Part shown: piece after piece, positions 1 through 61,050 of the stretch
Position numbering within the stretch: position 1 is the stretch's first letter
How the letters are laid out: each line of letters starts with the position of its first letter
Assembly (NCBI GenBank): GCA_051313645.2
Contig: JBNRSN020000004.1
Location: 333,684,001 to 333,748,000 of the forward strand
Length of the DNA: 64,000 bases
Reading direction: 5' to 3'
DNA from: Centroscyllium fabricii
Lineage: Eukaryota
Program-made: the position numbers and the translations under genes
Notes under the pieces: generated by a model
The model's input: the letters and a program-made list of their open reading frames with translations, nothing else
Database searches by the model: none
What the model was told of the DNA's origin: nothing

Positions 1-2749
1 TCATTGATTGGTGGTGTTGAGGGCCCCGGTGTGTGTATATATGGGGGCCAGTATTCGGTGGGTGGTGGCTGGTCGAGCTGAGGCTCGACCGGGGGTTCTG
101 CCATTGTGCTCCTGGCGGGCGCCAGATCCCTGATCGAGACCGTATCCTCGCGCCCGTCCGGGACGGCACATAAGCATATTGCGGGTTGGCGTGGAGCAGG
201 TGCATCCGTTCCACCAGGGGGTCGGTCTTGTGGCCGTGGACGTGCTTTCTAAGCAATACTGGCCCCTGCGCTGTGAGCCACAGCAGGAGTGCTGTCCCCG
301 AAGTCGACTTCCTAGGAAAGGAAAACAACAGGTCATGAGGTGTGGCGTTAGTGGCGGTATACAACAGAGAGCGGATGGAATGGAGCGCGTCTGGGAGGAC
401 CTCCTGCCAACGGGAGACTGGAAGGCCTCTGGACTTCAGGCCCAGGTTGACCGCCTTCCAGATGGTCCCATTCTCCCTTTCTACCTGGCCGTTCCCCCGG
501 GGGTTGTAACTGGTCGTTCTGCTTGAGGCAACCCCTTTCTGAAGCAGAAACTGACGCAGTTCGTCGCTCATGAACGACGACCCCCGGTCGCTATGGATGT
601 AGCTGGGGAGACCGAAAATGGCAAACAGCGTGGTGAAGTGTTTGATCACCGTTGCGCTCGTCATATCTGGGCAGGGGAAGGCAAATGGGAAGCGTGAGAA
701 CTCGTCTATGACCGTAAGGAAATATGAGTTGCGGTCAGTGGAGGGGAGGGGGCCTTTGATGTCCACACTCAGGCGTTCAAAGGGGCGCGTGGCCTTGATG
801 ACGTGCGCCCTGTCTGGCCTGTAGAATTGGGGTTTGCACTCGGCACAGACAGGGCACTCTTTGGTCATAGCCTTAATCTCCGTGATGGAGTAGGGGAGGC
901 TACGGGATTTGACGAAGTGGGCGAGTCTGGTGACACCCGGGTGGCAGAGGCGATCGTGGAGGGCCTTTGGCCGGTCAAGCTGGGCGCTGGCGCACGTTCC
1001 GCTGGACAGTGCATCCGGGGGTTCGTTGAGCTTGCCTTGACGGTAAAGAATGTCATACTCGTAAGTCGAGAGTTCGATCCGCCACCGAAGGATCTTATCA
1101 TTCTTGATTTTACCCCGTTGTTTATTGTTAAACATAAACGCCACCGACCGTTGATCGGTGAGCAGGGTAAAACACTTACCGGCCAGGTAATGACGCCAGT
1201 AGCGCACTGCCTCCACAATGGCCTGGGCCTCCTTTTCCACCACTGAGTGGCGAGTTTCGGGTCCCTGTAGGGTACGGGAGAAAAAAGCTTCGGGCCTGCC
1301 TGCTTGGTTCAGGGTGGTGGCAAGGGCGAAGTCCGAAGCGTCACTCTCCACCTGGAAAGGGATAGACTCATCAACGGCGTGCATGGTCGCCTTGATGATG
1401 TCTTCTTTAATCCGAGTGAATGCCGTTTGGGCTTCTGCCGAGAGGGGGAAGATGTCGGCCTTGAGGAGAGGTCTGGCCTTATCCGCGTACTGGGGGACCC
1501 ATTGCGCGTAAGAAGAAAAGAACCCTAGGCATCTCCCCAGGGCTTTGGGGTTGTGAGGTAAGGGCAGTTCTTGCAAGGGGCGCATACGCTGTGGATCGGG
1601 GCTGAGGAACCCGTTTTCCACCACGTATCCGAGGATAGCGAGCCGGTCCGTACTAAAGCCACACTTGTCTTTATTGTATGTTAGGTCCAGCTGTTTCGCC
1701 GTGTGCAGGAATTTGGCGAGGTTGGCATCGTGGTCCTGCTGGTCATGGCCGCAGATGGTCACGTTGTCCAGGTAGGGGAAAGTGGCCTGCAACCCGTTCT
1801 GGTCAACCATGCGGTCCATCTCCCTCTGGAACACCGACACCCCGTTGGTCACGCCAAAGGGGATCCGGAGGAAGAGGTAGAGCCTGCCGTTCACCTCGAA
1901 GGCGGTGTACTGGCGGTCGGATTTCCGGATGGGGAGTTGGTGATACGCCGACTTGAGGTCGATTGTGGAAAAGACCTTGTACTGGGCGATCTGGTTCACC
2001 ATGTCCGAGATGCGGGGGAGGGGGTAGGCATCGAGCCCGGTGTAGCGGTTAATCGTCTGGCTATAGTCAATGACCATGCGCAGTTTCTCGCCCGTCTTTA
2101 CCAACACGACCTGGGCCCGCCAGGGGCTGGTGCTGGCCTCAATGATCCCTTCTTTCAGCATGCGCTCGACCTCCGACCTGATGAATGCCCGGTCCCCTGC
2201 ACTGTAACGCCGACTTTTGGTAGCAATGGGCTTGCATTTGGGGTCGAGATTGGCGAACAGCGAGGGGGGGTCGACTTTTAATGTGGACAGGCCGCAAGTC
2301 GAGCTCCTTGTTAAGTTGGGATTGTCCCAACTACTGACGGTGAGGGGGGCCAAGGTTCCACCGAAATCCATCGTCACGCTCTTCAGGTGACACTGGAACT
2401 CCAGTCCCAGTAATACTGGGGCACACAGCTGTTGGAGTACGTACAACTTAAAGTTGCGGTAAATGCGGTCCCTGATCGTGAGCGTGACGCTGCAGTAGCC
2501 GGTGATGTCTGCCGTGAGGGACTTTGAGGCAAGGGAGATTTGGTAGTGCGTGGGCTGGGTCTGCAGTGCGTAGCGCCGCACCGTGTCGGGGTGTATGAAG
2601 CTCTCTGTGCTACCGGTGTCGAACAGGCAGTTAGTGACGTGCCCGTCCACCTTTATCTCCATCATGGAGTTGGACAAGGTGTGCGGCCTAGCCTGATCGA
2701 CGGTGGCTGAGGCCGAAGTGTGTGTGTGTGTGTGTGTGGGGGCCCTCCG
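1..2749 (-). CDS. pol: Gypsy A pol (PR-RT-RH-IN), apparently open to the window edge
   Basis: Motifs LFDTGS, YLDNV, DASDFA and an integrase core matching ORF 58116..59528. The frame is open at both ends I translated; I did not check every codon. Confidence 0.75.
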
Positions 2750-4023
2750 CTAGCTGGTGCCCCAGCTGGGGCGGTTGGCAAGATGGTCACTCGGAAGATG
2801 GCGGCGCTGGCGATTCGCACGTTTCCAGCTGCTGTGGCGGCGCCCGTGGTTCGCACGCAGCCGACCGCTGCGGACAAGATGGCGGCGCCCGTGGTTCGCA
2901 CGCGGCTGGCCGCTGTGGACAAGATGGCGGCACCCGCGGTTTGCGGCCGACCGCTGTGGATAAGATGGCGGCGCCCATGGTTCGCACGCGGCCGACCGCT
3001 GTGGACAAGATGGCGGCGCCCGTGGTTCGCACGCGGCCGACCGCTGTGGGCAAGATGGCGGCGCCGGGGGGTCGCACATGGCCTGTCGCGGTCGCGTTTG
3101 GGATGGCGGTGCCTGTGCCGCGCGCGTGGCCGGCCTCCGCCGTACAGTTAAAGGGGATGGAGGCGCCTGCGATTTACCCCCGGCTGACCGCTGCTGGGTC
3201 GCGCTGCAACACTGTACCTGTAGCCACGGAGTGGCGTCGCTGTTCTCACAGGCCGCGCTGTTGGGTCTGGAGGTGGGGGCCGGGCTGGATTTGCACGCCT
3301 TAGCGTAGTGCCCCTTCTTCGCGCACCGCGTGCAGATCGCATTCTTCGCGGGGCACTGCGCCCGCGGGTGCTTTCCTTGGCCGCAGAAGTAGCATCTGTG
3401 CCCCTTTGCAGTCGCCGCTGCCGTCGTGGGGGCCTCGGCCCGTCTCTGTGTCGCCCAGGGGTCAGGGGTACTCGCGTGGGAGTCGTGATCCCTGTACGCG
3501 TCTATCTTCCGAAGCGCTCCGTCTACCGCATTAGAAAGTGTTATCGCGGACTCGAGCGACAGTGTCTCCTGCTCCAGCAGCCGCTGGCGGGCCTGGCTGG
3601 ATCTGAGTCCTGCAATATAGGCATCGCAGATTAGAAGGTTCGCCTCTTCCTCCGCTGTCCTTGCCTTGCAGTCGCAGGCCCGTGCGAGGGCTTGGAGCGC
3701 CAGCAGGAATTGTTCATTGGACTCACCGAGTCGTTGTCTTCTGGTCGCCAGAACATGCCTGGCATAGACCGAGTGGGCCGGGCGCATGTAGCTGTCCTTC
3801 AATTTCTTGACCGCTTCCTCGTAAATCTTGAGGCCGCGGATAAAGGAGTACACCTGGCCGCTGATCCGTGATGAGAGTACCTGGAGTTTGTCCTCATCAC
3901 TTATCGCCTTTACGGCCTCATGTAGGCCTCGACGAGGCCAAACCAGTGTTCAAAATTGTTAGCAGCATCGGGCGCCTGAGGATTTATATCAAGGTGATCC
4001 GGTCTCACTGCGTTGCTCTCCAT
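2750..4023 (-). pseudogene. gag: Gypsy A gag, frameshifted near 3920
   Basis: ATG at 4023 gives a short frame that stops near 3910. The downstream ORF 2750..3853 carries two CCHC zinc knuckles. Confidence 0.85.
2779..3065. repeat. 45-bp tandem repeat in the gag-pol linker (one unit is 41 bp); a (GT)n microsatellite lies just outside at 2718-2738
   Basis: Unit CAAGATGGCGGCGCCCGTGGTTCGCACGCGGCCGACCGCTGTGGA; AAGATGGCG recurs at 2876, 2921, 2962, 3007 and 3052. Confidence 0.9.
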
Positions 4024-4047
4024 GTTTTAAAAATTAGTTAATAAAAT

Positions 4048-4284
4048 TGACGTATTGTCAATTAATCACACAAAGATGAGTAGTTACCTAAACTACAGGC
4101 TTTTATTAACTGAGAATAGAGCTGGTCTCTTGATGAGGTCAAGGTGAAGAGTGAATGGGGGCAGGGCAGCACTCACCTATATACTCCGACCTGAGGGGAG
4201 GAGTTAGGGGTGTGGCTGACCTGGCCTACAATATTGTACAGGTAGACCAGCAACTATGTACAGTGGTTATACACGATTACCACA
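4048..4284 (-). repeat. 5' LTR of Gypsy family A
   Basis: Minus strand starts TGTGG and ends TCA. TATA-like TATATA at 4178-4183 and AATAAA at 4102-4107. Clearly homologous to 57758-58028. Confidence 0.85.
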
Positions 4285-16089: not shown

Positions 16090-17480
16090 CATTCAATTCA
16101 ATTCAAGTTTTATTGTCATTGCAGAGTACAAGTACAAAACAACGAAACGAAGACTCGCCGCTCCCGAGAGTAGTGCAAATAAGTTACATACAATTGCATA
16201 CAGTAAAGTACATTACAGGTGTGCAGATACTGGAGTTTTTTGTTAGAGTTCAGGAGGCTGACAGCCCTGGGGAAGAAGCTCTTCTTGAATCTAGTCGTGC
16301 GGGTGCAAATTGATCTGTAGCGTCTCCCGGAGGGCAGGGGGGCGAACAGACTGTGGCTGGGGTGTGTGGGGTCTTTAATAATGTTCAGAGACCTCCGTAG
16401 GCAACGTTTGAGATAGGTGCATTCAATTGACGGTAGCTGGGTGCCGGTGATTCGTTGGGCAGTTTTGACTACCCGCTGCAGGGCCATCCGGTCCGAGATG
16501 GTGCAGTTTCCATACCAGACTGTGATGCAGTTTGTCAGTATGCTTTCGATTGTGCAGCGGTAGAAGTTAGTGAGGATGCCGGATAACACCTTGGCTTTTT
16601 TCAGCTTCCTTAGGAAGTACAGGCGCTGTTGGGCCTTCTTAATCAGAGAGGAGGTGTTTAGTGACCAGGAGAGGTCTTCCGAGATGTGGACTCCGAGGAA
16701 CTTGAAGCTGGATACCCTTTCCACCTCAGCCCCTTGGATGAAGATGGGGGTGTGTCTTCTGCTTTTTGTCTTCCGGAAGTCCACTATGATCTCCTTGGTT
16801 TTCTTGGTGTTCAGTGCCAGGTTGTTGTCGGCACACCATCCCACAAGGCGCTGAATCTCATCGCTATAGGCTGACTCATCGTTGTTGGTGATCTGGCCAA
16901 CTACTGTGGGGTCGTCCGCAAACTTGATGATCGTGTTGGAGCCATGGACAGCCGCACAGTCGTGGGTGAAGAGGGAGTAGAGGAGGGGGCTCAGCACACG
17001 GCCTTGTGGGGCCCCCGTGTTCAGGGTAAGGGGGGGGGTGGGGGAGGTGAGGTTACCTAACTTCACAGACTGTGGTCTGTTGGTTAGGAAGTCCAGGGAC
17101 CAGTTGCAGAGGGAGGTGTTCAGGCCGAGGGTGAGGAGTTTGGTAATCGACTTGCTGGGGACAATAGTGTTGAATGCTGAGCTGTAGTCAATAAACAGCA
17201 TTCTGATATACGTATCTTTGCTATCCAGGTGGTTTAGTGCAGAGTGAAGAGCCGTAGTGATAGCATCTTCCGTTGATCTGTTTCCTTGATAGGCGAACTG
17301 GTATTGGTCCAGGGCAGCGGGGACGCTGGCTTTGATGTGGGCCAGGACCAGCCACTCAAAACACTTCATGAGTATGGGTGTGAGTGCGACACGGCCGTTC
17401 AGGCACGTCACGGCCGTTTTCTTGGGCACAGGGATGATGGTGGCGGTCTTGAAGCAGGTAGGGACAGCTGTCTTCGCCAG
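16090..17480 (-). mobile_element. Rex1/Babar LINE, 5'-truncated RT
   Basis: [48 protein letters not shown]; (TTGAA)n tail. Confidence 0.9.
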
Positions 17481-18217
17481 AGAAATCGTGTTTAACAAAT
17501 TTATTGAGGATGTAACTAGCCGGGTAGATAAAGGGAACCAGTGGATGTAGTATATTTGGATTTCCAAAACGCATTCGATAACGTGCCATATAAAAACGTT
17601 GCTACGCAAGATAAGGGCTCATGGGATTGGGGTAATATATTAGCATGGATAGAGAATTAGTTAACGGGCAGAAAACATGGAGTCGGAATAAATGAGTCAT
17701 TTTCCAGTTGGCAGGCTGTAACCAGTGGGGTGACGCAAGGATCAGTGTTGGGGCCTCAGCTATTCACAATCTATATTAATGACTTAGATAAAGGGACTGA
17801 GTGTAATGTATCCAAGTTTGCTGACTATACAAAGCTAGGTGGTAAAGTAAGCTGTGAGGAGGACACAAAGAGCCTGCTAAAGGATATAGACAGGTTAAGT
17901 GAATGGGAATAAGGTGGCAGATGGAGAATAATGTGGGGAAATGTGAGGTTATTCACTTTGGTAGGAAGAATAGAAAAACAGAATCTTTTTTAAATGGTGA
18001 GAAACTATTAAAGGTTGGTGTTCAGGGAGATTTAGATGTTCTCGTACAAGAAACACAGAAAGCAATAAGGAAGGCAAATGGCATGTTGGTCTTTATTGCA
18101 AGGGGTTGGAGTATAAGACTAAGGAAGTCTTGCTACAATTATACAAGGCACACCTGGAGTACTGTGCAGTTTTGGTCTCCTTACCTGAGGAAGGACATAC
18201 TTGCCTTAGAGGCGGTA

Positions 18218-18937: not shown

Positions 18938-21900
18938 GAACATAAAAACATAGAAGATAGGAGCAGGAGTAGGCCATTCGGCCCCTCGAGCCTGCTCCGC
19001 TATTCAATGAGATCATGGCTGATCATCCAAATTCAGTACCCGGTCCCTGCTTTCTCCCCATATCCCTTGATCCCTTTAACCTTAAGAAATATATCCAACT
19101 CTTTCTTGAATATATTTAATGAATTGGCCTCCACTGCCTTCTGTGGTAGAGAATTGCACAGGTTCACCACTCTCTGTGTGAAGAAATTCCTCATCTCTGT
19201 CCTAAATGGCGTACCCCTTATCCTTAGACTGTGACCCCTGGTTCTGGACTCCCCGGCCATCGGGAACATCCTTCCTGCATCTAGTCTGTCTAGTCCTGTT
19301 AGAATTTGAAAAGGTTCAATGAGATCCCCTCTCATTCTTCTAAACTCCAGTGAGTCTAAGCCCAATCGACCCAGTCATTCCTGCCATCCCAGGTATCAAT
19401 CTGGTGAATTCTCGCTGCACTCCTTCCATGGCAAGAACATCCTTCCTCAGATAAGGCAACCAAAACTGCACACGATACTGAAGGTGTGGTCTCACCAAGG
19501 CCCTGTACAACTGCAGCAAGACATCCTTGTTCCTGTACTCGAACCCTATCGCTACGAAGGCCAACATACCATTTGCCTTCTTAACCGCCTGCTGCACCTG
19601 CATGCTTACCTTCAGCGACTGGTGCACAAGGACACCCAGATCTCGTTGCACTTCCCCTTCTCCCAATCTATTGCCATTCATATAATAATCTGCCTTCCTG
19701 TTTTTGCCACCAAAGTGGATAACCTCGCACTTAACCACATTATACTGCATCTGCCATATCACCCAACCTGTCCAATCATCAGCATCCTCCCCTCACAGCA
19801 CACACGCCCACCCAGCTTTGTGTCATCTGCAAACTTGGAGATATTACATCTAGTTCCCTCGTCCAGATCATTAATATATATTCTGAATAGCTGGGGTCCT
19901 AGCACCGATCCCTGCGGTACCGCAGTAGTCACTGCCTGCCACTCGGAAAAAGACCCGTTTATTCCAACTCTTTGCTTTCTGTCTGCTAACCAGTTCTCGA
20001 TCTAAGTCAGTAACTTGCCCCCAGTCCCATGTGCCTTGACTTTACACACTAATCTCTTAAGCGGGACCTTATTGAAAGCCTTCTGAAAGTCCAAATACAT
20101 CACATCCACTGGTTCTCCCTTATCTATTTTACCAGTTACATCCACAAAAAATTTCAGATTAGTCACACGATTTACCTTTTGTAAATCCATGTTGACTTTG
20201 TCCGATCCTGTCACTGTTCTCCAAGTGCTCTGCTATTACATCTTTTATAATGGACTCTAGCATTTTCCCCACTACCGATGTGAGGCTTTCCGGTCTATAA
20301 TTCCTCATTTTCCCTCTACCACCTTTTTTGAATAGTGGGGTTACATTAGCGACCCTCCAATCCATGGGAACTGTTGCAGAGTCTATCAAATTTTGGAAGA
20401 TGACCAGCAATGCATCTACTATTTCTAAGGCAACTTCCTTAAGTACCCTAGGATGTAGATTATCAGGCCCTGGAGATTTATCGGCCTTCAATCCCGTCAA
20501 TTTCCCTAACACCATTTCCCTACAAATACTGATTTCATTCTGTCACAGATGGGAATTCCTCTTTAAGGAATCCATTTTGATTTCTATGTTTTGTTCTCTG
20601 TTTGGTATCTTGTTTTCCTGTTAATATAGCCTGTTGAACCTCACATACCTGTGTGTTCCTCGTTCTCTATGCCTGCATCTTATTGGTTAGCACTAATCTA
20701 TCCAGTTGCTTGATCGGCTTATAAGCTGGGTGCTGAGACCAGGGAGTTGCCGGATCATTACTACTTTATACTACCAAGTAGCTTGTAACAACTTTGCAGT
20801 ACTAGGACACACAGAGGTGCTGTTCTAGATCCGTGGGAGGCAGTGAGCTGGTGGATATGGATTTCTCCTTCTGAAGACTCTGGTAGAGTGAGTCCCTGCT
20901 GAAGGGCGGACTCTGGAAGATTCCTAAATTCTACATTCTGGACACTGTTCTCGATCACCTGAACTCAGGTTTGGACATTCCATTTATACATTATGGACAT
21001 TGCTCGTTATGATCTGAACTCTGGAGCTCCGATGGAGGCTGTGTTGGTAGGGCGTTTCCCTGCTAGTGAATAATGGATTTCTCCTTCTGAAAACTCTGGT
21101 AGAGTGAGTCCCTGCTGTAGGGCGGACTCTGGGAGAGTTCCATTTCTTATTCTGGACACTGCTTTCTATTACCGGAACTCAGATATTGGACATTTCATTT
21201 CTACTGCAATGAGGTCTTTTCTGTAAGTAGGATGCTCTTTGCCGAGTGTCCTGGGAGTTTGGAATAAGGCTTGTTTCCAACTTCACAGAGGAAAACTATA
21301 TCCAGGGATGCTCTTGGCCGAGTGTCCTGGGGGTACAGTTGGACATTGTTTGCAATCACCTGTACTCAGTATTGGACTTTTCATTACTACTATATAGGAG
21401 GCCCTTTCTGTTATTAGGATGCTCTTTCCTGAGTGTCCCGAGGGTTCAGTTTCTGTATTAAGCTTGTGCCAGTTTTCAGTGGAAGACTTGTTTTTTATGT
21501 TATATATTTTGTATGTATGGATGTAGTTGATTATGTTTTCTGCATTTTATATTAAATAAAGGAGTTCTAGCTCTAGACAGCAGTTTTCAGTGTCTTGCAT
21601 TTGGGCCCCACACCCAAACGTTACACATTCAGTTCCTCCCTCTCATTAGACCCTATGTTCTCCAACATCTCTGGGAGGTTATTTGTGTCCTCCTTTGTGA
21701 AGACAGAACCAAAGTATCTATTTAATTGGTCTGCCATTTCTTTGTTCCCCATTATAAAATCCCCTGATTCTGACTGCAAGGGACCTACACTTGGACTCCT
21801 CCAATCTTTTTCTCTTCACATATCTATAAAAGCTTTTACAGTCAGTGTTTATGTTCCCTGCAAGCTTACTCTCAATCTATTTTCCCCCTCTTAATTAATC

Positions 21901-23280
21901 CCTTCATCCTCCTTTGCTGAATCCTAAACTGCTCCCAATCCTCAGGTTTGCTGCTTTTTCTGGCCAATTTAGATATCATCTCCTTGGATCTTATGCTATC
22001 CCTAATTTCCCTTGTTAGCCTTGGCTGACTCACCCTTTTTGTTTTATTTTTATGCCAAACAGGGATGAACAAATTCTGTAGTTCATCCATGCGGTCTTTA
22101 AATGTTTGCCATTGCCTATCCACCATCAACCTTTTGAGTAACATTCCCCAAACAATCCTACCCAACTCGCGCCTCATACCATCGTAGTTTCCTTTATTTA
22201 AATTCAGGACTCTAGCCTCTGAGTCAAATATTTCACTCTCCATCTCAATGAAGAATTCGATCATATTATGATCGCTCCTCCCAAAGGGGCCTCGCACAAC
22301 AAGATTGCTAATGAATCCTTTCTCATTACATAATACCCAGTCCAAGATGGCCTGATCTCCAGTTGGTTCCTCGACATATTGGTCCAGGAAACCATCCCAT
22401 ATACACTCCAGGAATTCCTCCTCCACAGTATTGTTACTAATTTGGTTAGCCCAATCTATATGGAGATTAAAGTCACCCATGATAACTGCTGTGCCCTTAT
22501 TGCACGCGTCTCTAATTTCCCGTTTAATGCCATCCCCAACCTCGGCATTACTGTTTGGGGGTCTGTATACAACTCCCGCTAACATTTTCTGTCCCTTGGT
22601 ATTTCTCAACTGTACCCATACAGATTCTACATCATCAGAGCTAATATTCTTCCTGACAATTGTGTTAATCCCCTCTTTAACCATCAATGCTACCCCACCT
22701 CCTTTTCCTTTTTGCCTGTCTTTCCTGAATATTGAATACCCCTGGATGTTGAGTTCCCAGCCCTGGTCATCCTGGAGCCATGTTTCCATAATCCCAATCA
22801 TATCATATCCGTTTACATCAATTTGCGCAGCTAATTCATCCACCTTATTACGAATGCTCCTCGCATTAAGACACAAAGCCTTCAGGCTTGTTTTTTTAAC
22901 ACTCTTAGACCTTTTAGATTTATTATTTACTGTGGTCATGTTTGATTTAAACCCTTGATTTCTCTGACTGCCACTGTTGACTTTCTCCTTCCTGCCTTTT
23001 GCTTCTATCCTTATTTCTCTTTCCTGTCTCCCTGCACAGGTTCCCAACCCCCTGCCATTTTCAGTTTAAACCCTCCCCCACAGCACTAGCACATACTATC
23101 CCTAGGACATCGGTCCCAGTCCTGCCCAGGTGCAAACCATCCATTTTGTACTGGTCCCACCTCCCCCAGAACCGGTTTCAATGTCCCAGGAATTTAAATC
23201 CCTCCCCCTTGCACCATTCCTCTAGCCACGTATTCATCTGAAATATCCTTCTATTTCTACTCTGACTAGCACGTGGCACT
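18938..23280 (-). mobile_element. Near-complete CR1/HER1 ORF2 (APE endonuclease + RT), decayed
   Basis: ORF 21872..23047 is APE (LNARSIRNK, GGGVAL, YRPP, GDFN, SDHN). RT fragments at 19033-20515 and a 3' UTR. Interrupted by a solo LTR. Confidence 0.92.
20541..21625 (+). mobile_element. Solo LTR of a sushi-like Gypsy family
   Basis: TGT...ACA ends and 5-bp TSD CATTC. TATAAG is followed by GCCGGATCATT, then AATAAA. The 3' end CATTTGGGCCC...TTACA is shared with the LTR at 59498-60064. Confidence 0.88.
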
Positions 23281-25156: not shown

Positions 25157-26379
25157 ATGGGAGCCATTTATTTCCTTCCTTCCTGGGCATTAGAGGAGCT
25201 CGAGCACCAGCCACGGCACCAGCAGAACCAGGAACAACAGCAGCACCAACAGCAGCAGCAACAGGAGCGCCAGGCTGCTGCTCGCCCACCTGAAGCTGCA
25301 CAGGCCAGAAGGGGCCAGCGCTTGGAAGCCCGGCGGTGCAGGAGATACCTCCCAAACAGGGTCTACAGACACAAGGTCAGCTACCTCAGCCTGTCTGAGC
25401 AGCAGTGCCAAAAGCGGCTCCGACTTTCGCGAGAGGTAGTGACTGACATCTGCGCAATGCTGCAACAAACCTGCAGCCCAGAGGACCAGGTGGACAAGCC
25501 TTACCAGTGGCCATCAAGGTCACCACCGCACTCAGATTTTTTGCCTCAGGCTCATTCCAGGTATCAGCAGCAGACATCAGTGGCATCTCCCAGGCGGCTA
25601 CACACACTTGCATCACACAAGTAACCGATGCCCTCTTTGCCATCGCGCCCAGTCACATCCATTTCACCAAGGATCGAGCAAGTGTCACGGCGCGAGTGGT
25701 TGGATTAGCTAATCTGGCAGGCTTTCCAAGGGTGCAGGGCATCATTGACTGCACACATGTGGCCCTTAAGGCAACCCATCGCAATCGAGGTATTTTCGTG
25801 AACCGCAAGGGCTTCCACTCCCTTAACGTTCAGCTGGTGTGTGACCACAAGGAGGAGATTTTGCATGTTTGTGCCAAGTACCCTGGCAGTTGCCATGACT
25901 CCTTCATACTGTGCCAGTCTAGTGTGCCTCCGATATTCAGTCCACCAGACCAACTTAACAGATGGCTACTTGAAGACAAGGGCTATCCCCTGAGGATGTG
26001 GCTAATGACGCCGTTGACAAGCCCATCCAATGAAGCTGAGGAGAGCTACAACTCCAGCCACATGTCCACCAGAGCCATAATCGAGCAAACCATCAGTTTG
26101 CTGAAGATGCGCTTCAGATGCCTGGATAGATCCGGTGGAGCCCTGCAGTACTCAGCAGCCAGGGTCTCCAGAATCGTCATGGTTTGCTGTGCACTTCACA
26201 ACATGGCACAGCGTCGTGGCTTGCAGATTCCTGAGGACCAAGTGGTTCCTCACATACCCTCCTCAGATGAGGAGGAGGAGTGCGAAAACGCACATCCTGC
26301 AGAGGCCCATCAACCAGCAGCAGCATTATGCGAGAACATTGCTGCCCGGGATGCAAGGAACGCACTCACCTTGGCCTGA
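25157..26379 (+). pseudogene. Harbinger (HARBI1-like) DDE transposase, one frameshift near 25470
   Basis: [64 protein letters not shown]. Confidence 0.92.
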
Positions 26380-29300
26380 TTTGCCTAGCCGAGCCGATCA
26401 AGCACTTTTGCCTCGCAGCTTCTGGCCTGAGCATCGACAATGGCCAAGACCCTGCTGATTCCTAACTATTTGAGCAGCATGCTGACAGTTGCAAGTAATC
26501 CTAAGCTCTCAATGTGAAAGTCCCATTCACAAAATGACACACGCCACAACTGCAACAGTTGCCATCAGAATTTTTATGTACAAGAACCAACTGATGGCAT
26601 TTTTACAATAAACACATTTCACCCAAGTGACTACCCTTGTGACTATTTGTGCAGAATTTTCTCTTACGCCTGCTCCTACATCATGCCTCCCCTGTGACTT
26701 CAGCAGATGCGGAGGCCCCCTGCTCACTTTGCTGCTGCTCCTGTCTCGCCACCTTTGACGGGCATCCTCTGGGTTTGCAAGCCTGTGAGGGCTCATCAAC
26801 AGTCTGCTGCTCCTGCGGCTGTGCAGGGGTTGAGACGCCTCTCACTTGGGTGTGGACTCCGGTGGGGCTCTGACCGAGGGCTCTGCAGTGGCATGGAAGT
26901 GTGAGCACTTGGAGAGGAGCCCCCACTTCCTTGATGTCTGCCACCAATTTTCCTCTCATGGGTCAGGACCCCCTAAGCACCTGCAAGTGGCTGGAGAGCA
27001 CCTTGCTGCACATCAGGGGGGCCATGGGGACCCGTATCTGCAGTGGCAGTCCTACTCAGAAGGACTTCCATGAAAGTCTGGTTTCCCAGTTCAATAGATG
27101 CCCAACGCTCCTCCAGAGATGTTATTCTGTTATGAACACTCACCATGTTTTCAGCACTCTGGCAACTTATCTCCTCTATGGCCGAAGCCATCCTCTCGTC
27201 TACTGTTGCCATCTGTTCGAGGGAGGTTGCCATCCTTTCCGCAATGATGCGTTCATGCGCCAATGACTCCACAAAGGCTCTGCTCATGGTCGCTATGGAC
27301 TCTTCCATTCGCTCCACACTCGCAGCGACCCTGGAGACAAAACCTGCCAGAGACTCCTGCATCTGTTCCTGGAGTTCCAGCACCGCTGATCTTATAGATG
27401 GACCCAGAGGCAGAGGGTCGACATGCAGCTGAGCCGAGCTGGGAGAGTCCCGCGCCCTCCAACTAGGACTCTCCACTGCTGTCCCTGTCTCCACAATCTG
27501 CTGATGCTCACTTGTGAGCTGTGATACACCAGGTGACAACATTACTCTATGTCCCGAAGGTCCCACCGAGGTGTGAGTGTCTGCGTTGGTGCTGGGTGCG
27601 CTGAATTCTGCTGACACTGCGCCCTCAGAGGTTGCAGCTTCCTCTGAGGAGTCTGGCTGCTCAGGCTGTTCTTCCTGGCTAGTGAGGACGGATGCTTGCG
27701 ATGGTCCTGTGGGGGAGTAAAGGAAAGAGTCAGAGATGTGATGCCAAGGTTACATGCACATTGCATATTGCAGATGCTCATAAGTCCATCTGTTAGAGCT
27801 TCAAAAATATTATCAGCGACTCATGCAATGCCAATGAGATGGGAAATTTTTCTGTCACCAGCTTGCTGTGTTGCACCCCTCTGTCCATCCCCCACTTGCA
27901 CATCCTCCTCTACTCCCACGATTTCCAGGACCGCCTCCTCCCATGGGGTCAGGTGGGCTAATGAGGCTGTCCCTCCTCCTGTCCTCGCTCTTTCTCGCTT
28001 ATTGTGAGCTCTCTTTTCCTGTAATGAGGGAGACAAGTGGAGGTTGTGTGAGAATGAAGGAATGAGTGTAGAGATTACACAGCATCGATACATAGGAGAC
28101 ATAGATGGAGTGAGGTGGCAAGAACAAGGGCCCTCCCTGTGTATTGTCAGTTGTTTGCATAGCATCAGAGTGAGAGGGTGTGTGAGGGCTGCATAGTCGA
28201 ATAGTTCTGTGAATGTGACCATAGAAAGGGAATGGGTAAGGGTGCATGGATGCCAGTGTTAAGTGGGTTGTGGAGGAAGAGATTGCTGAAGCTGAGTGCT
28301 GGTGAGGAACGGCAACGGGGATCAGATTGAGGGTGATGGGCAAATCATACTCACTTTTCCAGTGCGGAGGTCATGAAATCTCTTAGGGCACTGTATCCAG
28401 GTTCTGCAGTGACTCCTAAGGAGTTGACCTCCTCAGCCACCTGCATCCACACTGCCTTGGTCTGCTTGGGAGGCCTCTTCCTCCCTGTAGAAGGGAAGAG
28501 CACCTCCCAACATAAGAAATAGGAGCAGGAGTAGGCCAATCGGCCCTTCGAGCCCGCCCCGCCATTCAATAAGATCATGGCTGATCTGATCCTAACAACC
28601 AACCTACTATCACAGAAGCATCTCCTGCATCTAATAGAATTCGACACAGGAAATAGGAGCAGGATCAGGCTACACGGTCCCTGGGCCCGCTCCACTACCC
28701 ACAGGGCCATGACCGATCTGAACCTAGACTCAAGTCCAAGTTCCTGCCCACTCCCCGTAACCTTTAATCCCTTTTACTACTAGGAAACTGTCTATTTCTG
28801 TTTTAAATTTATGTAATGAAGTAGCTTCTACAGCTTTTTGGGGCAGCATTTTCCATAGACCTACTACACTCTGAGTGAAGTAGTTTCTCCTCATCTCAGT
28901 TTTGAAAGAGCAGCCCCTTGTTCTAAGTTTATGCCCCCTAGTTCTAGTTTCACCCATCATTGGGAACATCTTCCCCGCATCCACCCGATCCAACCCCTTC
29001 ACAATCTTATATGTTTCAATAAGATCTCCCCTCATTCTTCTGAACTCCAATGAGTAGAGTCCCAATCTACTCAACCTCTCCTCATATGTCCAACCTCTCA
29101 TCTCTGGGATTAACCGAGTGAACCGTCTTTGTGCTGACTCGAGAGCGAGAGCGGGCAGCACGGTGGCATATTGGTTAGCACTGTTGTCTCACAGCACTAG
29201 AGACCCGGGTTCAAATCCAGCCTCGGGTACTATCTGTGTGGAGTTTGCACATTCTCCCCGTGTCTGCGTGGGTTTCCTCCGGGTGCTCCGGTTTCCTCCC

Positions 29301-41410: not shown

Positions 41411-43513
41411 GGCCCAGAAATTGCAGTGGAGCCTTCGTGCGGGTGCAGTACCTGCTAGTTGCACTGGCACTGCCCATAATCCGGTTTGCTTTTTTGCACT
41501 CAGAAATTGCAGTTAGCCCAGCTTGTCAGAGCTCTGTGCGAGCTTCATGGGCAACTGAACGGCATAATTAGTGCGAGATGGCTTTTGAGACCACGTGATT
41601 GGCAGGGAGCCAATCAGTGGAACCAATCCTCGTTCAAAACTTCCACTCAGGAATCTGTGCAAGTTTTCAATGGAGAGATTACCCAAAAGACATCTAAACT
41701 CAAAAATAAAATTTTAAAAACACCACATTTTTTAACATTACCCCAACTAACACAAATAACCTATTTTAAAGAAAAAATAAAAATTTACAGAAAAACTTTT
41801 CAACTTCCAACAGGTCTAAAAAAAATACTTACCTGTCTTTAAAGTTATCAACAATTAAAAACTTGAAAAAACAACAATTAAAATCAATAAAATACACACT
41901 TACCAGATAAAAATGGATACTTACGACTGCTTTTTCCCAGCATAGAATCTCCTGGGCTTGGTCCGTAGAAAAGGTTTTTAATTCAATTCAATTCAATTTC
42001 AATTCAATTCAAGTTTTATTGTCATTGCAGAGTACTAGTACAATACAACGAGACGAAGACTCGACTCTCCCGAGAGTAGTGCAAACAAAATAAATAAATT
42101 ACATGCAAATTGCATACAGTAAAGTTCATTATCAGGCGTGCAGGTACCGGAGTTTCTTTTTAGAGTTCAGGTGGCTGACAGCCCTGGGGAAGAAGCTGTT
42201 CTGAAATCTAGTCGTGCGGGTGCAAATTGCTCTGTAGCGTCTCCCGGAGGGCAGAGGGGCGAACAGACTGTGGCTGGGGTGTGTGGGGTCTTTTATAATG
42301 TTCATAGACCTCCGTAAGCAGCGTTTGAGGTAGATGCTTTCCACTGACGGTAGCTGTGTACCGGTAATTCGTTGGGCAGTTTTGACTACCCGCTGCAGGG
42401 TTTTCCGGTCCGAGATAGTGCAATTCCCATACCAGACAGTGATGCAGCTTGTCAGTATGCTTTCTATTGTGCAGCGGTAGAAGTTGGAGAGGATGCCGGA
42501 TGACAGCCTGGCTTTCTTCAGCTTCCTAAGGAAGTACAGGCACTGTTGGGCCTTCTTAACCAGAGAGGAGGTGTTTAGTGACCAGGAGAGATCTTCCGAG
42601 ATGTGGACCCCGAGGAACTTGAAGCTGGACACCCTTTCCACCTCAGCCCCTTGGATGAAGATGGGGGTGTGTCTTCTGCTTCCAGTCCTCCGGAAGTCCA
42701 TTATGATCTCCTTGGTTTTCTTGGTGTTCAGTGCCAGGTTGTTGTCGGCACACCAACCCACAAGGCGCTGGATCTCATCCCTGTAGGCTGACTCGTCGTT
42801 GTTGGTGATCTGGCCAACCACCGTGGTGTCATCCGCGAACTTGATGATCGTGTTGGAGCCATGGACAGCCGCACAGTCGTGAGTGAAGAGGGAGTAGAGG
42901 AGGGGGCTGAGCACAAACTTGTGGGGCCCCCGTGTTCAGGGTAAGGGGCGGGGAGGTGAGGTTGCCTAACTTCACAGACTGTGGTCTGTTGGTTAGGAAG
43001 TCCAGGGTCCAGTTGCAGAGGGAGGTGTTCAGGCCGAGGGTGAGGAGTTTGGTAGACAATTTGCTGGGGACGATGGTGTTGAATGCTGAGCTGTAGTCAA
43101 TAAACAGCATTCTGATATATGTATCTTTGCTATCCAGGTGGTTTAGTGCAGAGTGAAGAGCCGTAGTGATAGCATCCTCTGTAGATCTGTTCCCACGGTA
43201 GGCGAACTGGTATTGGTCCAGGGTGGCGGGGATGCTGGCTTTGATGTGGGCCAGGACCAGCCGCTCGAAACACTTCATGATAATGGGTGTAAGTGCAACA
43301 GGGCGGTAGTCGTTCAGGCACGTCACCCGAATTACTGGACACAACCCGTACTTCGCTGCTTCCTGCTCTGGCCCTCGCAGGAACTTCAACGCCCCCGCTG
43401 GCCGGCATAGGAAAACCTGAAGCAGCGCAACCGGCTGCTTCCTGCGGGTTTAAGCTCTGGTGCGCTCGCACCAGAGCTTAAACCTGATATGGGCAGACTG
43501 CAATTTCTGGCCC
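41411..43513. mobile_element. PIF/Harbinger-type MITE containing a Rex1 insertion
   Basis: TIR GG(C/G)CCAGAAATTGCAGT, TSD ATT. Confidence 0.82.
41980..43328 (-). mobile_element. Rex1/Babar LINE, 5'-truncated RT, frameshift near 42915
   Basis: ORFs 42829..43389 and 42132..42914 ([24 protein letters not shown]); (TTGAA)n tail; close relative of 16090-17480. Confidence 0.9.
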
Positions 43514-51314: not shown

Positions 51315-51415
51315 CCTTTCAAACCGGCCGTCACTGCGCAGGCGCGCCGCAGCACTGCCACTCACAGCTCGGGGGCGGGGCCCGGTGGGTTAAACTCCGC
51401 CCACTCGCTCTTGAC
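51315..51415 (-). promoter_or_regulatory. CpG-island promoter / 5' UTR of the CEP72-like gene
   Basis: NRF1-like TGCGCAGGCGCG at about 51335; GC boxes GGGGCGGGG at about 51372 and CTCCGCCC at about 51394. Confidence 0.6.
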
Positions 51416-51417
51416 CA

Positions 51418-54400
51418 CTGCTGGAGAGAGAACACAGAGAGAGTATTAGTGCAACTAGAGAGAGAGAACACAGAGAGAGTATTAGTGCAACTAGAGAGAG
51501 AGAACACAGAGTGAGTATTAGTGCAACTAGAGAGAGAGAACACAGAGAGAGTATTAGTGCAACTAGAGAGAGAGAACACAGAGAGAGTATTAGTGCAACT
51601 AGAGAGAGAGAACACAGAGAGAGTATTAGTGCAACTAGAGAGAGAGAACACAGAGAGAGTATTAGTGCAACTAGAGAGAGAGAACACAGAGAGAGTATTA
51701 GTGCAACTAGAGAGAGAGAACACAGAGAGAGTATTAGTGCAACTAGAGAGAGAACACAGAGAGTATTAGTGCAACTAGAGAGAGAGAGAACACAGAGAGA
51801 GTATTAGTGCAACTGGAGAGAGAGAGAACACAGAGAGTATTAGTGCAACTGGAGAGAGAGAACACAGAGAGAGTATTAGTGCAACTAGAGAGAGAACACA
51901 GAGAGTATTAGTGCAACTGGAGAGAGAGAGAGAGAGAACACAGAGTATTAGTGCAACTGGAGAGAGTGAGAGTGAACACAGACAGTATTAGTGCAACTGG
52001 AGAGAGAGAGAGTGAACACAGAGAGTATAAGTGCAACTAGAGAGAGTGAACACAGAGAGTATTAGTGCAACTGGAGAGAGTGAACACAGAGAGTATTAGT
52101 GCAACTGGAGAGAGTGAGAGTGAACACAGACCGTATTAGTGCAACTAGAGAGAGTGAACACAGAGAGTATTAGTGCAACTGGAGAGAGAGAGAACACAGA
52201 GAGTATTAGTGCAACTAGAGAGAGTGAACACAGACAGTATTAGTGCAACTAGAGAGAGTGAACACAGACAGTATTAGTGCAACTGGAGAGAGAGAGAACA
52301 CAGAGAGTATTAGTGCAACTGGAGAGAGTGAGAGTGAACACAGACAGTATTAGTGCAACTGGAGAGAGAGAGAGAACACAGAGAGAGTATTAGTGCAACT
52401 GGAGAGAGAGAACACAGACATTATTAGTGCAACTAGAGAGAGTGAACACAGACAGTATTAGTGCAACTGGAGAGAGAGAGAACACAGAGAGTATTAGTGC
52501 AACTGGAGAGAGTGAGAGTGAACACAGACAGTATTAGTGCAACTGGAGAGAGAGAGAACACAGAGAGAGTATTAGTGCAACTGGAGAGAGAGAGAACACA
52601 GAGTATTAGTGCAACTGGAGAGAGAGAACACAGAGAGAGTATTAGTGCAACTAGAGAGAGAACACAGAGAGTATTAGTGCAACTGGAGAGAGAGAGAGAG
52701 AGAACACAGAGTATTAGTGCAACTGGAGAGAGAGAGAACACAGAGAGAGTATTAGTGCAACTGGAGAGAGAGAGAACACAGAGAGTATTAGTGCAACTGG
52801 AGAGAGAGAACACAGAGAGAGTATTAGTGCAACTAGAGAGAGAACACAGAGAGTATTAGTGCAACTGGAGAGAGAGAGAGAGAGAACACAGAGTATTAGT
52901 GCAACTGGAGAGAGTGAGAGTGAACACAGACAGTATTAGTGCAACTGGAGAGAGAGAGAGTGAACACAGAGAGTATTAGTGCAACTGGAGAGAGTGAACA
53001 CAGAGAGTATTAGTGCAACTGGAGAGAGTGAGAGTGAACACAGACCGTATTAGTGCAACTAGAGAGAGTGAACACAGAGAGTATTAGTGCAACTGGAGAG
53101 AGAGAGAACACAGAGAGTATTAGTGCAACTAGAGAGAGTGAACACAGACAGTATTAGTGCAACTGGAGAGAGAGAGAACACAGAGAGTATTAGTGCAACT
53201 GGAGAGAGTGAGAGTGAACACAGACCGTATTAGTGCAACTAGAGAGAGTGAACACAGAGAGTATTAGTGCAACTGGAGAGAGAGAGAACACAGAGAGTAT
53301 TAGTGCAACTAGAGAGAGTGAACACAGACAGTATTAGTGCAACTAGAGAGAGTGAACACAGACAGTATTAGTGCAACTGGAGAGAGAGAGAACACAGAGA
53401 GTATTAGTGCAACTGGAGAGAGTGAGAGTGAACACAGACAGTATTAGTGCAACTGGAGAGAGAGAGAACACAGAGAGAGTATTAGTGCAACTGGAGAGAG
53501 AGAGAACACAGAGTATTAGTGCAACTGGAGAGAGAGAACACAGAGAGAGTATTAGTGCAACTAGAGAGAGAACACAGAGAGTATTAGTGCAACTGGAGAG
53601 AGAGAGAGAGAGAACACAGAGTATTAGTGCAACTGGAGAGAGAGAGAACACAGAGAGAGTATTAGTGCAACTGGAGAGAGAGAGAACACAGAGAGTATTA
53701 GTGCAACTGGAGAGAGAGAACACAGAGAGAGTATTAGTGCAACTAGAGAGAGAACACAGAGAGTATTAGTGCAACTGGAGAGAGAGAGAGAGAGAACACA
53801 GAGTATTAGTGCAACTGGAGAGAGTGAGAGTGAACACAGACAGTATTAGTGCAACTGGAGAGAGAGAGAGTGAACACAGAGAGTATTAGTGCAACTGGAG
53901 AGAGTGAACACAGAGAGTATTAGTGCAACTGGAGAGAGTGAGAGTGAACACAGACCGTATTAGTGCAACTAGAGAGAGTGAACACAGAGAGTATTAGTGC
54001 AACTGGAGAGAGAGAGAACACAGAGAGTATTAGTGCAACTGGAGAGAGTGAGAGTGAACACAGACCGTATTAGTGCAACTAGAGAGAGTGAACACAGAGA
54101 GTATTAGTGCAACTGGAGAGAGAGAGAACACAGAGAGTATTAGTGCAACTAGAGAGAGTGAACACAGACAGTATTAGTGCAACTAGAGAGAGTGAACACA
54201 GACAGTATTAGTGCAACTGGAGAGAGAGAGAACACAGAGAGTATTAGTGCAACTGGAGAGAGTGAGAGTGAACACAGACAGTATTAGTGCAACTGGAGAG
54301 AGAGAGAACACAGAGAGAGTATTAGTGCAACTGGAGAGAGAGAGAACACAGAGTATTAGTGCAACTGGAGAGAGAGAACACAGAGAGAGTATTAGTGCAA

Positions 54401-57400: not shown

Positions 57401-57757
57401 AGAGAGAACACAGACATTATTGCTGCAACTAGAGAGAGTGAACACAGACAGTATTAGTGCAACTGGAGAGAGAGAGAACACAGAGAGTATTAGTGCAACT
57501 GGAGAGTGAGAGAGAACACAGACATTATTGCTGCAACTAGAGAGAGAGAGAGAACACAGACAGTATTACTGCCGCTGGAGACAAAACACAGACAGCATTA
57601 CTGCAACTAGAGAGAGAGAGAGAACAGAGAGTATTAGTGCCACTGGAGAGAGAACACAAGAGAGTATTACTGGAACTGGAGAGAGTGAGAGAACACAGAC
57701 AGTATTACTGCCACTGGACAGAGAACACAGCCAGTATTACTGCAACTGGAGAGAGAG
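51418..57757. repeat. ~6.3 kb satellite/VNTR, unit about 32-42 bp GTATTAGTGCAACT(A/G)G(AG)n(TG)AACACAGA(G/C)A, with higher-order blocks
   Basis: Read directly from the sequence; identical ORF translations recur 910 and 2088 bp apart. Confidence 0.97.
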
Positions 57758-59497
57758 TGACGTATCGTCAATTAAGACAAAAGACGAGTAGTTACCTTAA
57801 CTATAGGCTTTTATTAAATTTATAATGGAGCTAGTCTCCAGTCGAGTTCAAGGCGCGAATGAACGGGGGCAGGGCGGCCCTTACCTATAAGCTCCCACCT
57901 GAGGGGAGGAGTTAGAGGTGTGGCTGACCTGGCCTTACACACAGTATACAGGTATATGTGACCCCACAGTGTACAAGTCCCGCCAATGCACTCGCAACTA
58001 CATACAGATGGTAATAACGGTTACCAAATTCACCCCTTCTTTGAAAATAAGTCCAGCGGGGTGAACGAGAGACAAAACAGTAACCAGAGAAGAAAAAGAA
58101 AAATTTTAGTGTCCGTTAGCACTGCGCTATCAGTCTGTCTGGCGGTCGTGTCTGCCTCGAGGACCGCCGGGGTTCCGGTAACGGTGCTGGTGCCGGTTGC
58201 GGTGCCGGGATCGGTGCTGGTGCCGGTGGCGGTGCCGGGGTCGGGCTCTCCGGCAATGGTGCCGGTGGCGCTGTGTTCGATCCTAGGTCAGCAGTTGGTG
58301 TTGTCAAGGGCCCCGGTGTGTGTGTGTATGAGGGCCAGTAGTCGGTGGGTGGTGGCTGGTCGGGCTGAGGCTCGACCGGGGGTTCTGCCCTAGTGCTCCC
58401 GGCGGGCGCCAGGTCCCTGATCGATACCGTGTCCTCGCGCCCGTCCGGGAATGTTACGTAGGCATACTGCGGGTTGGCATGTAGCAGATGCACCCGTTCC
58501 ATCAGGGGGTCGGTCTTGTGGCCGCGGACATGCTTTCTAAGCAAGACCGGCCCTGGCGTCGTGAGCCATGGTGGGAGTGCTGTCCCCAAAGTCGACTTCC
58601 TGGGGAAGGAAAATAACAGGTCGTGAGGTGTTGAATTGGTAGCGGTACACAACAGAGAGCGAATGGAATGGAACGCGTCTGGGAGGACCTCCTGCCAACG
58701 GGAAACTGGAAGGCCTCTGGACTTCAGGCCCAGGTTGACCACCTTCCAGATAGTCCCATTCTCCCTTTCTACCTGGCCGTTCCCTCGGGGGTTGTAACTG
58801 GTCATTCTGCTTGAGGCAACCCCTTTCTGAAGCAGAAACTGGCGCAGTTCGTCGCTCATGAACAACGACCCCCAGTCGCTAAGGATGTAGCTGGGGAGAC
58901 CGAAAATGGCGAACAGCGTGGTGAAGTGCCTTATTACCGTTGCGCTCATCATGTCTGGGCAGGGGAAGGCGAAGGGGAAGCGTGAGAACTCGTCTATGAC
59001 CGTGAGAAAGTACGAGTTGCGGTCAGTGGAGGGGAGGGGGCCTTTGAAGTCCACGCTCAGACGTTCAAAGGGGCGGGTGGCCTTGATGACGTGCGCCGTG
59101 TCTGGCCTGTAAAATTGGGGTTTGCACTCGGCACAGACAGGGCACTCTTTGGTCATAGCCTTTATCTCCGTGATGGAGTAGGGGAGGCTACGGGATTTGA
59201 TGAAGTGGGTGAGTCTGGTGACACCCGGGTGGCAGAGACGATCGTGGAGGGCCTTCAGCCGGTCCAGCTGGGCGCTGGCGCACGTTCCCCTGGACAGTGC
59301 ATCCGGGGGTTCGCTGAGTTTGCCTGGACAGTAAAGAATGTCATACTCGTAAGTCGAGAGTTCGATCCGCCACCGCAGGATCTTATCATTCTTGATTTTA
59401 CCCCGTTGTTTAGTATTAAACATAAACGCTACCAACCGTTGGTCGGTGAGCAGGGTAAAACGCTTACCGGCCAGGTAATGACGCCAGTAGCGCACTG
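57758..59497 (-). mobile_element. Gypsy family A, copy 2: end of RNase H, integrase, PPT and 3' LTR (57758-58028)
   Basis: ORF 58116..59528 has the HHCC motif (H...HPG...CPVC) and an integrase core with catalytic D and E positions; PPT AAAGAAGGGGTGAA abuts the LTR. Confidence 0.92.
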
Positions 59498-60081
59498 TGT
59501 CATAGGTTGGTTCTTCTCCTTTTGTCATAGGTTGGATTCCCCTTTAAATTCTAGGTGGCCTCTTCTCCCTTAAATTGGCCAGTACCTCGTTTACTACTGC
59601 ATACACCAGATTGGACAGCCCTAATCAACCAATATATCTTGAGCTGTTTATAAGCTTCCACTTTGCACCAGGAGCTTGCCAGATCATTAATTCTGTTACT
59701 GTGATACATGTGTTCTGTTCCTAGCTCTCTGATTCAGTCGAATTGTGTTACTGACCTGCTTACAGAAGAATTGGATTCTACTCTGCTGGAACTCGGTGTT
59801 GGAGTTTGTCCCTTCGGTGAAGCGGACTACCTGGAGAATTACTGTTTCTGTATTTGGACTTATTGCTCTCTATTACCTGAACTCTGGTTTGGACTTGTTA
59901 TCCTCTATTACCTGAACTCTGGTTTGGACTTGTTTGTCTCCGTGAACTTACTGCAGTTATTGACTTTATGTTTCTATATCTTCTGACGACTTGGAAATAA
60001 AGGAATTTTATTTCTACGCTGGTTTCCTGTGTTTTGCATTTGGGCCCTACCATCAACCATTACAGAACGATCTGGCCAAGA

Positions 60082-61050
60082 ATGGACCCAGCAGACACAC
60101 TGAAGCGTCTGGCACAGGTCGAAGGCGCCCTATTACACCAGGGGCAGGCCTTGGGGAATATGATCACTCAAATGGAGCAGCTAACCGCCGCCTGGAACTC
60201 GCGGGCAGCGTCGGATCCGGCAGGGATTCCACCACCACCAGACCCGGCTTCAGCATCGGTGTCGGCACCCATGCCTCACCTACAAGGCCTCACACCCGAA
60301 CCCCGAGTCGGGGTACCGGAACGTTATGCCGGTGAACCTGAGCAATGTAATCCCTTTCTCACTAACTGTTCCATTCTGTTTTCATTGCAGCCCCGCACCT
60401 TTGCCAATGAGACGGCAAAGGTAGCCTTTGTGATTAACTACCTCACAGGAAGAGCTCGTCTTTGGGGAACCGCCGAGTGGGAGAGAGAGACTCAGGCTTG
60501 CTCTTCTTTCAAGGGATTCGCCACCGAATTAAGAAGGGTGTTCGGCATGGTAACCTTCGGCTCTGAAGCAGCTCGGGGACTCATGAATCTGAGCCAGGGC
60601 AATCAGACAGTTGCTGATTACTCAATAGACTTCCGAATTAGAGCTCGGCTGAGTAATTGGAATTCGGCTGCATTATGTGACGTTTTTCTTCATGGGCTTG
60701 CAGGCTGCATCAAGGATGAACTGGTCTCCTATGATCTCCCTTCCACCCTGGATGAACTAATTAGTCTTGCCACCAGGATCGATCTCCGTATCCAGGCGCG
60801 TCGACGTGAGAGACTACTGGGAACGACTGGTCGACATCCTCCGAAACGGACTCAAGAGATATTCGGGGCGCCCAGGAATACTGCGACAGCAGGGTCAGAG
60901 CCAGTGGGTCACGAACCAATGCAGTTGGGTCGCACCTATATCTCATTGGTGGAGCATAAACGACGCCGCAAGGGGAATCTCTGTTTGTACTGCGGTCAGG
61001 CCGGCCATTTTGTTTCCCAGTGCCCAGCAAAATATCGGACTCACCAGTAG
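60082..61050 (+). CDS. gag: Sushi-like gag
   Basis: MDPAD..., [47 protein letters not shown]. Confidence 0.9.

Follow-up and report, generated by a model that had tools for sequence, protein, structure and literature searches.

A primer-binding site that covaries with the poly(A)-signal region of its own LTR suggests self-priming in a Ty3/Gypsy clade outside the chromoviruses

What could prime reverse transcription in an LTR retrotransposon whose LTR is not followed by a binding site of the tRNA type? The question is raised by an element on the minus strand of a 64,000-nt stretch of Centroscyllium fabricii DNA, which was analysed as a whole and is referred to here as the window. Unless indicated otherwise, the coordinates of the element refer to the minus strand. 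Its 5' LTR occupies 4048..4284 (237 nt, TG...CA), and the LTR end is fixed independently by a second copy in the window, whose 3' LTR (57758-57954) aligns to 4048-4244 with 82.5% identity and ends in the same TCA. No TGG follows the LTR of the studied element, and no tRNA gene was found within the window. Instead, one spacer base (A, 4047) separates the LTR from a putative primer-binding site (PBS, 4046-4036), TTTTATTAACT, which is not of the tRNA-CCA type and is exactly complementary to AGTTAATAAAA at 4111-4101 inside the LTR. The latter segment, here called the arm, includes the hexamer AATAAA (4107-4102) and would form the 5' strand of a helix, P1, with the PBS as its 3' strand.

The 11-nt exact complement over the AATAAA had been pointed out in a preliminary description of the locus, and it withstands comparison with random sequences. 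An 11-nt complement to a PBS starting 0–5 nt past the LTR arose in 9 of 20,000 dinucleotide-shuffled LTRs, and of the 79 AATAAA sites that the window has on its two strands, only the two strands of the studied feature have such a partner. The predicted fold of 4115-4030 has z = −3.0, with none of 200 shuffles equally stable; for the longer region 4152-4010 the corresponding values are z = −2.2 and 8 of 200. A PBS variant at 4039 is common in host-lineage contigs. Changes at 4035 and 4112 share one contig depth (23.1, run X11), a hint of a pair that would be the twelfth.

The coding region begins with gag (2750..4023, ATG at 4023), which contains two Cys/His knuckles and 45-nt tandem repeats near its end and whose ORF is broken by a frame change near 3950. 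It is followed by pol (2..2749), with protease, RT, RNase H and integrase core in the Ty3/Gypsy order, which runs off the window. Near the gag-pol junction of this copy, six 45-nt tandem units lie at 2790-3120. The second copy comprises the 3' LTR with a variant arm and a polypurine tract before the LTR (57758..58028) and the end of RNase H with an integrase remnant (58116..59497, 91.9% to the first copy, no chromodomain match); its 5' end is not inside the window. The A-run in the LTR of this second copy is one A longer than quoted in the preliminary description, and the pattern as quoted has no match. The PR-RT-RH-IN order, the TG...CA LTRs, the polypurine tract and the target-site duplications seen in relatives are those of Ty3/Gypsy elements (Metaviridae). 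The 3' end of the studied copy lies outside the window, and target-site duplications were scored in relatives only: 5-bp duplications flank L004, L005, L016 and L031, and the LTR ends were verified in several copies with paired LTRs. The window also contains a sushi-like Gypsy element (59560-64000, plus strand), which was used as a control. At 59678, 29 nt past a TATA box, lies a 10-of-11 match to its PBS (near 60066), which is the ordinary Tf1-type geometry; its AATAAA is located at 59996.

A gag search for relatives of the studied element yielded 6,397 cluster representatives at E ≤ 0.001, of which 150 were listed. Relatives known by name include those of shark, ray, crinoid, nematode, isopod, sea spider and several insect orders; the gag of a shark relative is 45% identical to that of the studied element, which suggests a cartilaginous fish as host. 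Metagenome contigs were scanned with an alignment of 20 of 153 proteins, picked for shared motifs. The scan gave 366 pattern matches, of which 235 were confirmed, and the best 80 of the 235 loci, together with the window, make up 44 families at gag identity of at least 78%. Among the 20 representatives with an RT, RT identity ranges from 38 to 74% with a median of 54%. The RT of the window element is 45–65% identical to clade members compared with 31% to the sushi-like RT in the same window, and it stands on a long branch apart from the latter (SH-aLRT 99) in a quick tree (two outgroup rows, no named reference), which served solely to set the clade apart from the sushi-like RT. Full-length relatives have single ORFs of ~1,200 aa, and the LTRs measured among relatives span ~80–290 nt. 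No Chromo match was detected at E up to 0.1 in three full-length relatives (P0152, P0110 and P0139) or in the second copy. Three scans recovered no relatives in viral contigs, and no longer gag homologues were found, which is weak evidence. We take the clade to be a candidate match to the Cigr-1 clade (Ciona; also molluscs and annelids), which combines a short LTR, a single ORF of ~1,200 aa and a Mag-like gag, a label given by description only; it could equally be a MolGy clade. The available portions of the papers naming the Cigr-1 clade contain no discussion of its PBS.

If the PBS is functionally tied to the arm, the two should change together across families. A perfect arm:PBS helix of at least 9 bp is present in 36 of the 44 families (best member per family). 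One of them, L072, contains a mismatch that displaced the automatic register and is excluded from the per-position counts for that reason. In the remaining 35 scored families the helix measures 9–18 bp and reaches at least 11 bp in 31, lengths that are inflated by the use of best-of-family rows, with positions 1–9 paired by selection. The helix starts exactly 1 nt past the CA of the LTR in all 35 families, the spacer base is A in 33, and the position just outside the helix is unpaired in all 35. The arm ends in the A-run of the poly(A) signal and its last base faces the second base past the LTR; the 3' end of the arm faces the base where minus-strand synthesis would have to start in every scored family, as the preliminary description had proposed for the primer end. 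In none of the 35 families do the first 8 nt past the LTR contain TGG, which extends the absence of a TGG-type PBS, originally claimed for the window locus, to the clade. The PBS sequences are diverse, with 34 distinct 12-mers among the 35 families, and when arms and PBSs of different families are combined, only 7 of 1,190 pairings attain 11 bp or more.

Pairing exceeds the cross-family expectation through position 15, and two-sided changes occur at 14 of the 15 pairs (117 cells compared with 30.9 after shuffling; the score was reached in none of 500 shuffles). In this automatic alignment, in which two rows are out of register, 91.8% of the positions are paired compared with at most 46% for slid partners. 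The test suggested with the preliminary description, covariation between the PBS and the sequence flanking the AATAAA, therefore came out in its favour. In L020/L027 and L064 the two-sided change falls within the would-be hexamer: the arms end in AGA and the PBS begins with TCT. Eight families remain. L015 (14 bp) and L030 (12 bp) are positive by eye via the 3' LTR, and L025, also counted as positive by eye, retains after a deletion a PBS remnant in which 9 of 10 positions match. Four more (L058/59, L074/76, L075 and L079) are truncated or rearranged. In L046 (L046:1-118) no arm:PBS match was found upstream; its contig could start too far downstream, or this family could be different.

The composition of the helix bears on how it is maintained. 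G-U pairs should be tolerated in a helix that selection alone maintains, but not in one that is rewritten by copying. Across 528 cells at positions 1–11, with G-U scored equal to Watson–Crick, we counted 503 Watson–Crick pairs, 8 G-U, 7 A-C and 10 others. The count is based on 48 distinct arm/PBS pairs from the 67 of 81 loci that passed in a constrained register; free choice of the register gives false alignments. Five of the eight G-U cells stem from two doubtful registers. In addition, L008 differs from nine siblings 98–99% identical to it by one transversion, which is carried in matching form by the PBS and both LTR arms; this is a single event. The near-absence of G-U pairs, together with this matched double change, suggests that the arm is copied into the PBS.

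A second structural element adjoins the arm. In the studied element, folds predict a hairpin with a 5-bp stem (P2, 4086..4100) that begins on the first base after the arm. A hairpin of at least 4 bp in this position is predicted in 29 of the 35 families, whereas 500 shuffles gave 6 on average and never more than 14. The hairpin spans roughly 11–36 nt after the arm and has two-sided variants of its own; in contrast to P1, its first pair is G-U in 18 of the 35 families. A small hairpin at the end of U5 (4047..4061, spacer base included), also predicted from folds, is kept in the LTR of the second copy and is not clade-wide, with energies below −2 kcal/mol in 6 of the 35 families. No sign of a Tf1-like "pretzel" was obtained: the leader-U5 duplex energy is −9.7 kcal/mol within families and −10.1 kcal/mol across families. 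In L050 (L050:99-178) the LTR is only ~80 nt long and still contains the arm, the hairpin and the PBS helix, leaving little promoter room upstream of the arm.

The arm ends in AATAAA in 13 families, ATTAAA in 13 and other sequences in 9, and only one of these nine has a canonical hexamer further downstream in the LTR. L001 and L035 have no canonical hexamer in the arm and carry ATTAAA 5 nt downstream, within the hairpin loop in L001; in this family the poly(A) signal may have become detached from the primer arm. Masking of the 5' poly(A) signal by the helix, as proposed in the preliminary description, may plausibly occur. It cannot be the sole purpose of the helix, and we place priming ahead of masking, because the nine families without AATAAA or ATTAAA in the arm keep the helix.

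As judged from its sequence and that of its relatives, the studied element belongs to the Ty3/Gypsy retrotransposons outside the chromoviruses, and its PBS is complementary to, and covaries with, an arm of its own LTR. The clade-wide two-sided covariation, the fixed register at the LTR end and the lack of a tRNA-type PBS strongly support the earlier proposal of self-priming, and we assign a probability of roughly 0.88 to self-priming by the arm in some form. In the consulted parts of the Tf1 literature, the primer site is described as copied into the cDNA (PMC11042837) and the Tf1 RNase H as cutting the RNA and thereby releasing the primer. By analogy, the 5' copy of the arm in the genomic RNA would pair with the PBS, and the RNase H of the element would cut at the junction of P1 and P2, predicted at 4101|4100. 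From the 3'-OH created in this way, RT would proceed across the spacer and U5 as far as the cut, and the first strand transfer would take place on the short stretch between the hexamer and the poly(A) site. Plus-strand synthesis would copy the arm and in doing so rewrite the PBS. As a side effect, the hexamer of the 5' copy would be buried, and that of the 3' LTR copy, which has no PBS partner, would stay free. A point against the internal cut is the short homology left for strand transfer, as the arm ends 23–71 nt before the LTR end. We regard this complete geometry, with an internal 5' arm and a cut at the arm/hairpin junction, as about an even bet, and the priming geometry probably differs from that of yeast Tf1.

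The main difference from Tf1 would lie in the position of the arm within the transcript. A TATA-like box (4177..4183, TATATA at 4183-4178), putatively a promoter element, is located 72 nt upstream of the first base of the arm in the studied element compared with 29 nt in the sushi-like control, and it predicts a start near 4152, at a pyrimidine-A initiator-like site 31 nt downstream. Measured from the 3' end of the arm, the TATA lies at −83 in the studied element and at −75 and −82 in two other families, and related subfamilies carry a canonical TATA motif in the corresponding position (loose contig ends, runs X11 and X13). Across the clade, a TATA-like match within 160 nt is found in only 8 of the 35 families, scattered from −45 to −158, with four at −109 to −158. 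Transcription starts on purines, with known exceptions, and if the cap defined the start of the helix, helices should begin on purines. The helix begins on a pyrimidine in 23 of the 35 families. Pairing past the 5'-most purine amounts to 46 compared with 18.4 ± 4.4 expected (0 of 20,000; best-of-family rows), and pairing past position 11 to 117 compared with 17.9 ± 5.6. These data make it probable that the arm is internal to R, with the start site some 40 nt upstream of it.

The alternative that survives best is a Tf1-type geometry in a new lineage, in which transcription starts at the arm, the first 11–18 nt including the hexamer act as the primer, and R is very short. The studied copy has the initiator-like motif TCAGTT at 4108..4113 with its A exactly at 4111, and an initiator-like run of A, G and T occupies arm positions 11, 10 and 9 in 23, 28 and 25 of the 35 families. 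L048 has a weak TATA match at −45, or 31 nt before the arm, which fits the Tf1 spacing. Run-off at the cap would simply end the copied PBS, and the mechanism is a proven one as far as the consulted sections go (PMC5341516, PMC4600332, bioRxiv 2022.12.06.519325). Against this stand the excess of pairing beyond position 11 and past the 5'-most purine, the lack of a TATA near −30 from the arm in the studied element, and the replacement of the C preceding A 4111 on the element strand: at 4112, G>A and G>T account for nearly all of the host-lineage contig depth. Overall, we consider a start at the arm rather unlikely. The earlier claim that the arm is internal to R, unlike in Tf1, is favoured, indirectly, by the TATA distance and the pairing past the purine start, and opposed by TCAGTT at 4111 and the TATA spacing in L048. 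Positions of initiator motifs were rejected as a guide to start sites, being too scattered. Contig starts at the arm in L012 and L014 were likewise rejected, as their distances to the downstream LTR end, 77 and 55 nt, are typical assembly word lengths; the L055 contig begins 54 nt before the LTR end, upstream of the arm, and is a further case against reading contig starts as transcript starts.

It is also conceivable that the 3' copy is the primer. The arm in the 3' R would pair with the PBS, looping the genome, and cutting or trimming after the hexamer would expose the primer; strong-stop DNA would copy all of U5-R, with transfer beside the primer. This arrangement would place the primer near the natural 3' end of the RNA, where the poly(A) signal at the end of the arm lies, would accommodate pairing into upstream pyrimidines with no special start site, and would provide longer homology for transfer. 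The PBS length could moreover be set by RNase H, if it trims the hybrid as far as the RNA:RNA helix. However, local pairing is predicted for the 5' copy close by, where the pair probability averages more than 0.7 in 34 of the 35 families, and this helix would form first; polyadenylation may remove the conserved hairpin from the 3' copy; and the consulted portions of the literature searched contain no precedent. Priming from the 3' copy therefore seems unlikely to us.

A helix that only hides the 5' poly(A) signal, as the poly(A) hairpin of HIV does, or that regulates translation, with an unseen host RNA as primer, would agree with AATAAA or ATTAAA within the arm in 26 of the 35 families and with a PBS start 13–82 nt upstream of the gag start, but we judge it quite improbable, as masking would require no constant 1-nt offset from the LTR end and no restriction to Watson–Crick pairs, the helix persists in the nine families without a canonical hexamer, and the 34 different PBS 12-mers each match their own LTR only, with no TGG site.

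Self-priming by the arm invites comparison with known systems, which we describe from the portions of the literature available. The fission yeast elements Tf1, Tf2, Tj1 and Tosmo and the Tf1/sushi chromoviruses including Tcn1 share with the clade the Ty3/Gypsy domain order, the lack of a tRNA PBS, an LTR-adjoining PBS complementary to the LTR, an accessory helix beside the primer duplex and a PBS copied from the primer. The clade differs from them in lacking a chromodomain (in the three full-length relatives and the second copy), in its distant RT, and in having a local hairpin in place of the three-duplex "pretzel" (bioRxiv 2022.12.06.519325). Its arm ends in the poly(A) hexamer, whereas the AATAAA of the sushi-like control lies 318 nt past the complement, and its helix is 9–18 bp long with an arm that is probably internal. 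Of the features that characterize Tf1/sushi elements, the clade has the PBS complementary to its own LTR; a chromodomain, clustering of the RT with chromoviruses and the "pretzel" were not seen. Outside the chromoviruses, self-priming has been predicted from LTR-PBS complementarity for the TAR lineage (Houba, Osr-1) of plant Ty1/copia elements (PMC6317226), which belongs to a different superfamily and host kingdom and represents an independent case. Unconventional priming has been proposed for Skipper of Dictyostelium and for the fungal GalEa copia elements, both without a TGG PBS; unlike the clade, Skipper has no complementary region in the LTR, and the GalEa hairpin lies within the internal region. 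The tRNA-primed Gypsy clades (Mag, CsRn1, Gmr1 and others) have a TGG-initial PBS, which is absent in 35 of 35 families here.

In the consulted sections, self-priming is listed for Tf1/sushi, Tcn1 and TAR copia only (PMC3601003, PMC6317226, PMC5341516, PMC5006619, PMC6238403, PMC6934838, PMC3670739, PMC8556966, PMC4600332, PMC11042837, bioRxiv 2022.12.06.519325). A full-text literature search of partly accessible sources found no report of self-priming in the clade or of a primer overlapping the poly(A) signal; an earlier passing mention is possible. Among Ty3/Gypsy elements, self-priming has thus been tied to the Tf1/sushi chromoviruses in the literature available, and its probable presence in a separate, large animal clade suggests that it either arose independently there or is more ancient. 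By joining the primer end to the poly(A) signal, the clade would have an RNA architecture different from that of Tf1/sushi. It also bears on the proposal, as given in the part consulted, that hairpin priming preceded tRNA priming (PMC3601003). Elements of the clade would also offer tRNA fragments no target site, and annotation tools that require a tRNA PBS would miss them. If priming from the 3' copy were true, priming, circularisation and the first strand transfer would share one duplex in a pan-animal clade, which would represent a third priming route besides tRNA and cap-proximal self-priming.

The rest of the window contains other repeats. A tandem array of ~6.3 kb (51400-57760) with units of 34–40 nt and strong G and A skew directly abuts the 3' LTR of the second copy. 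Convergent ORFs are located at 25447-26379 (plus strand) and 26973-27749 (minus strand), and the former may encode a Harbinger/PIF-type transposase, judging by its motif. LINE remnants at 16116-17618, 21872-23065 and 42132-43449, all on the minus strand, contain RT-like and endonuclease-like frames, two of them 90–92% alike, and many short dispersed repeats are scattered through the window.
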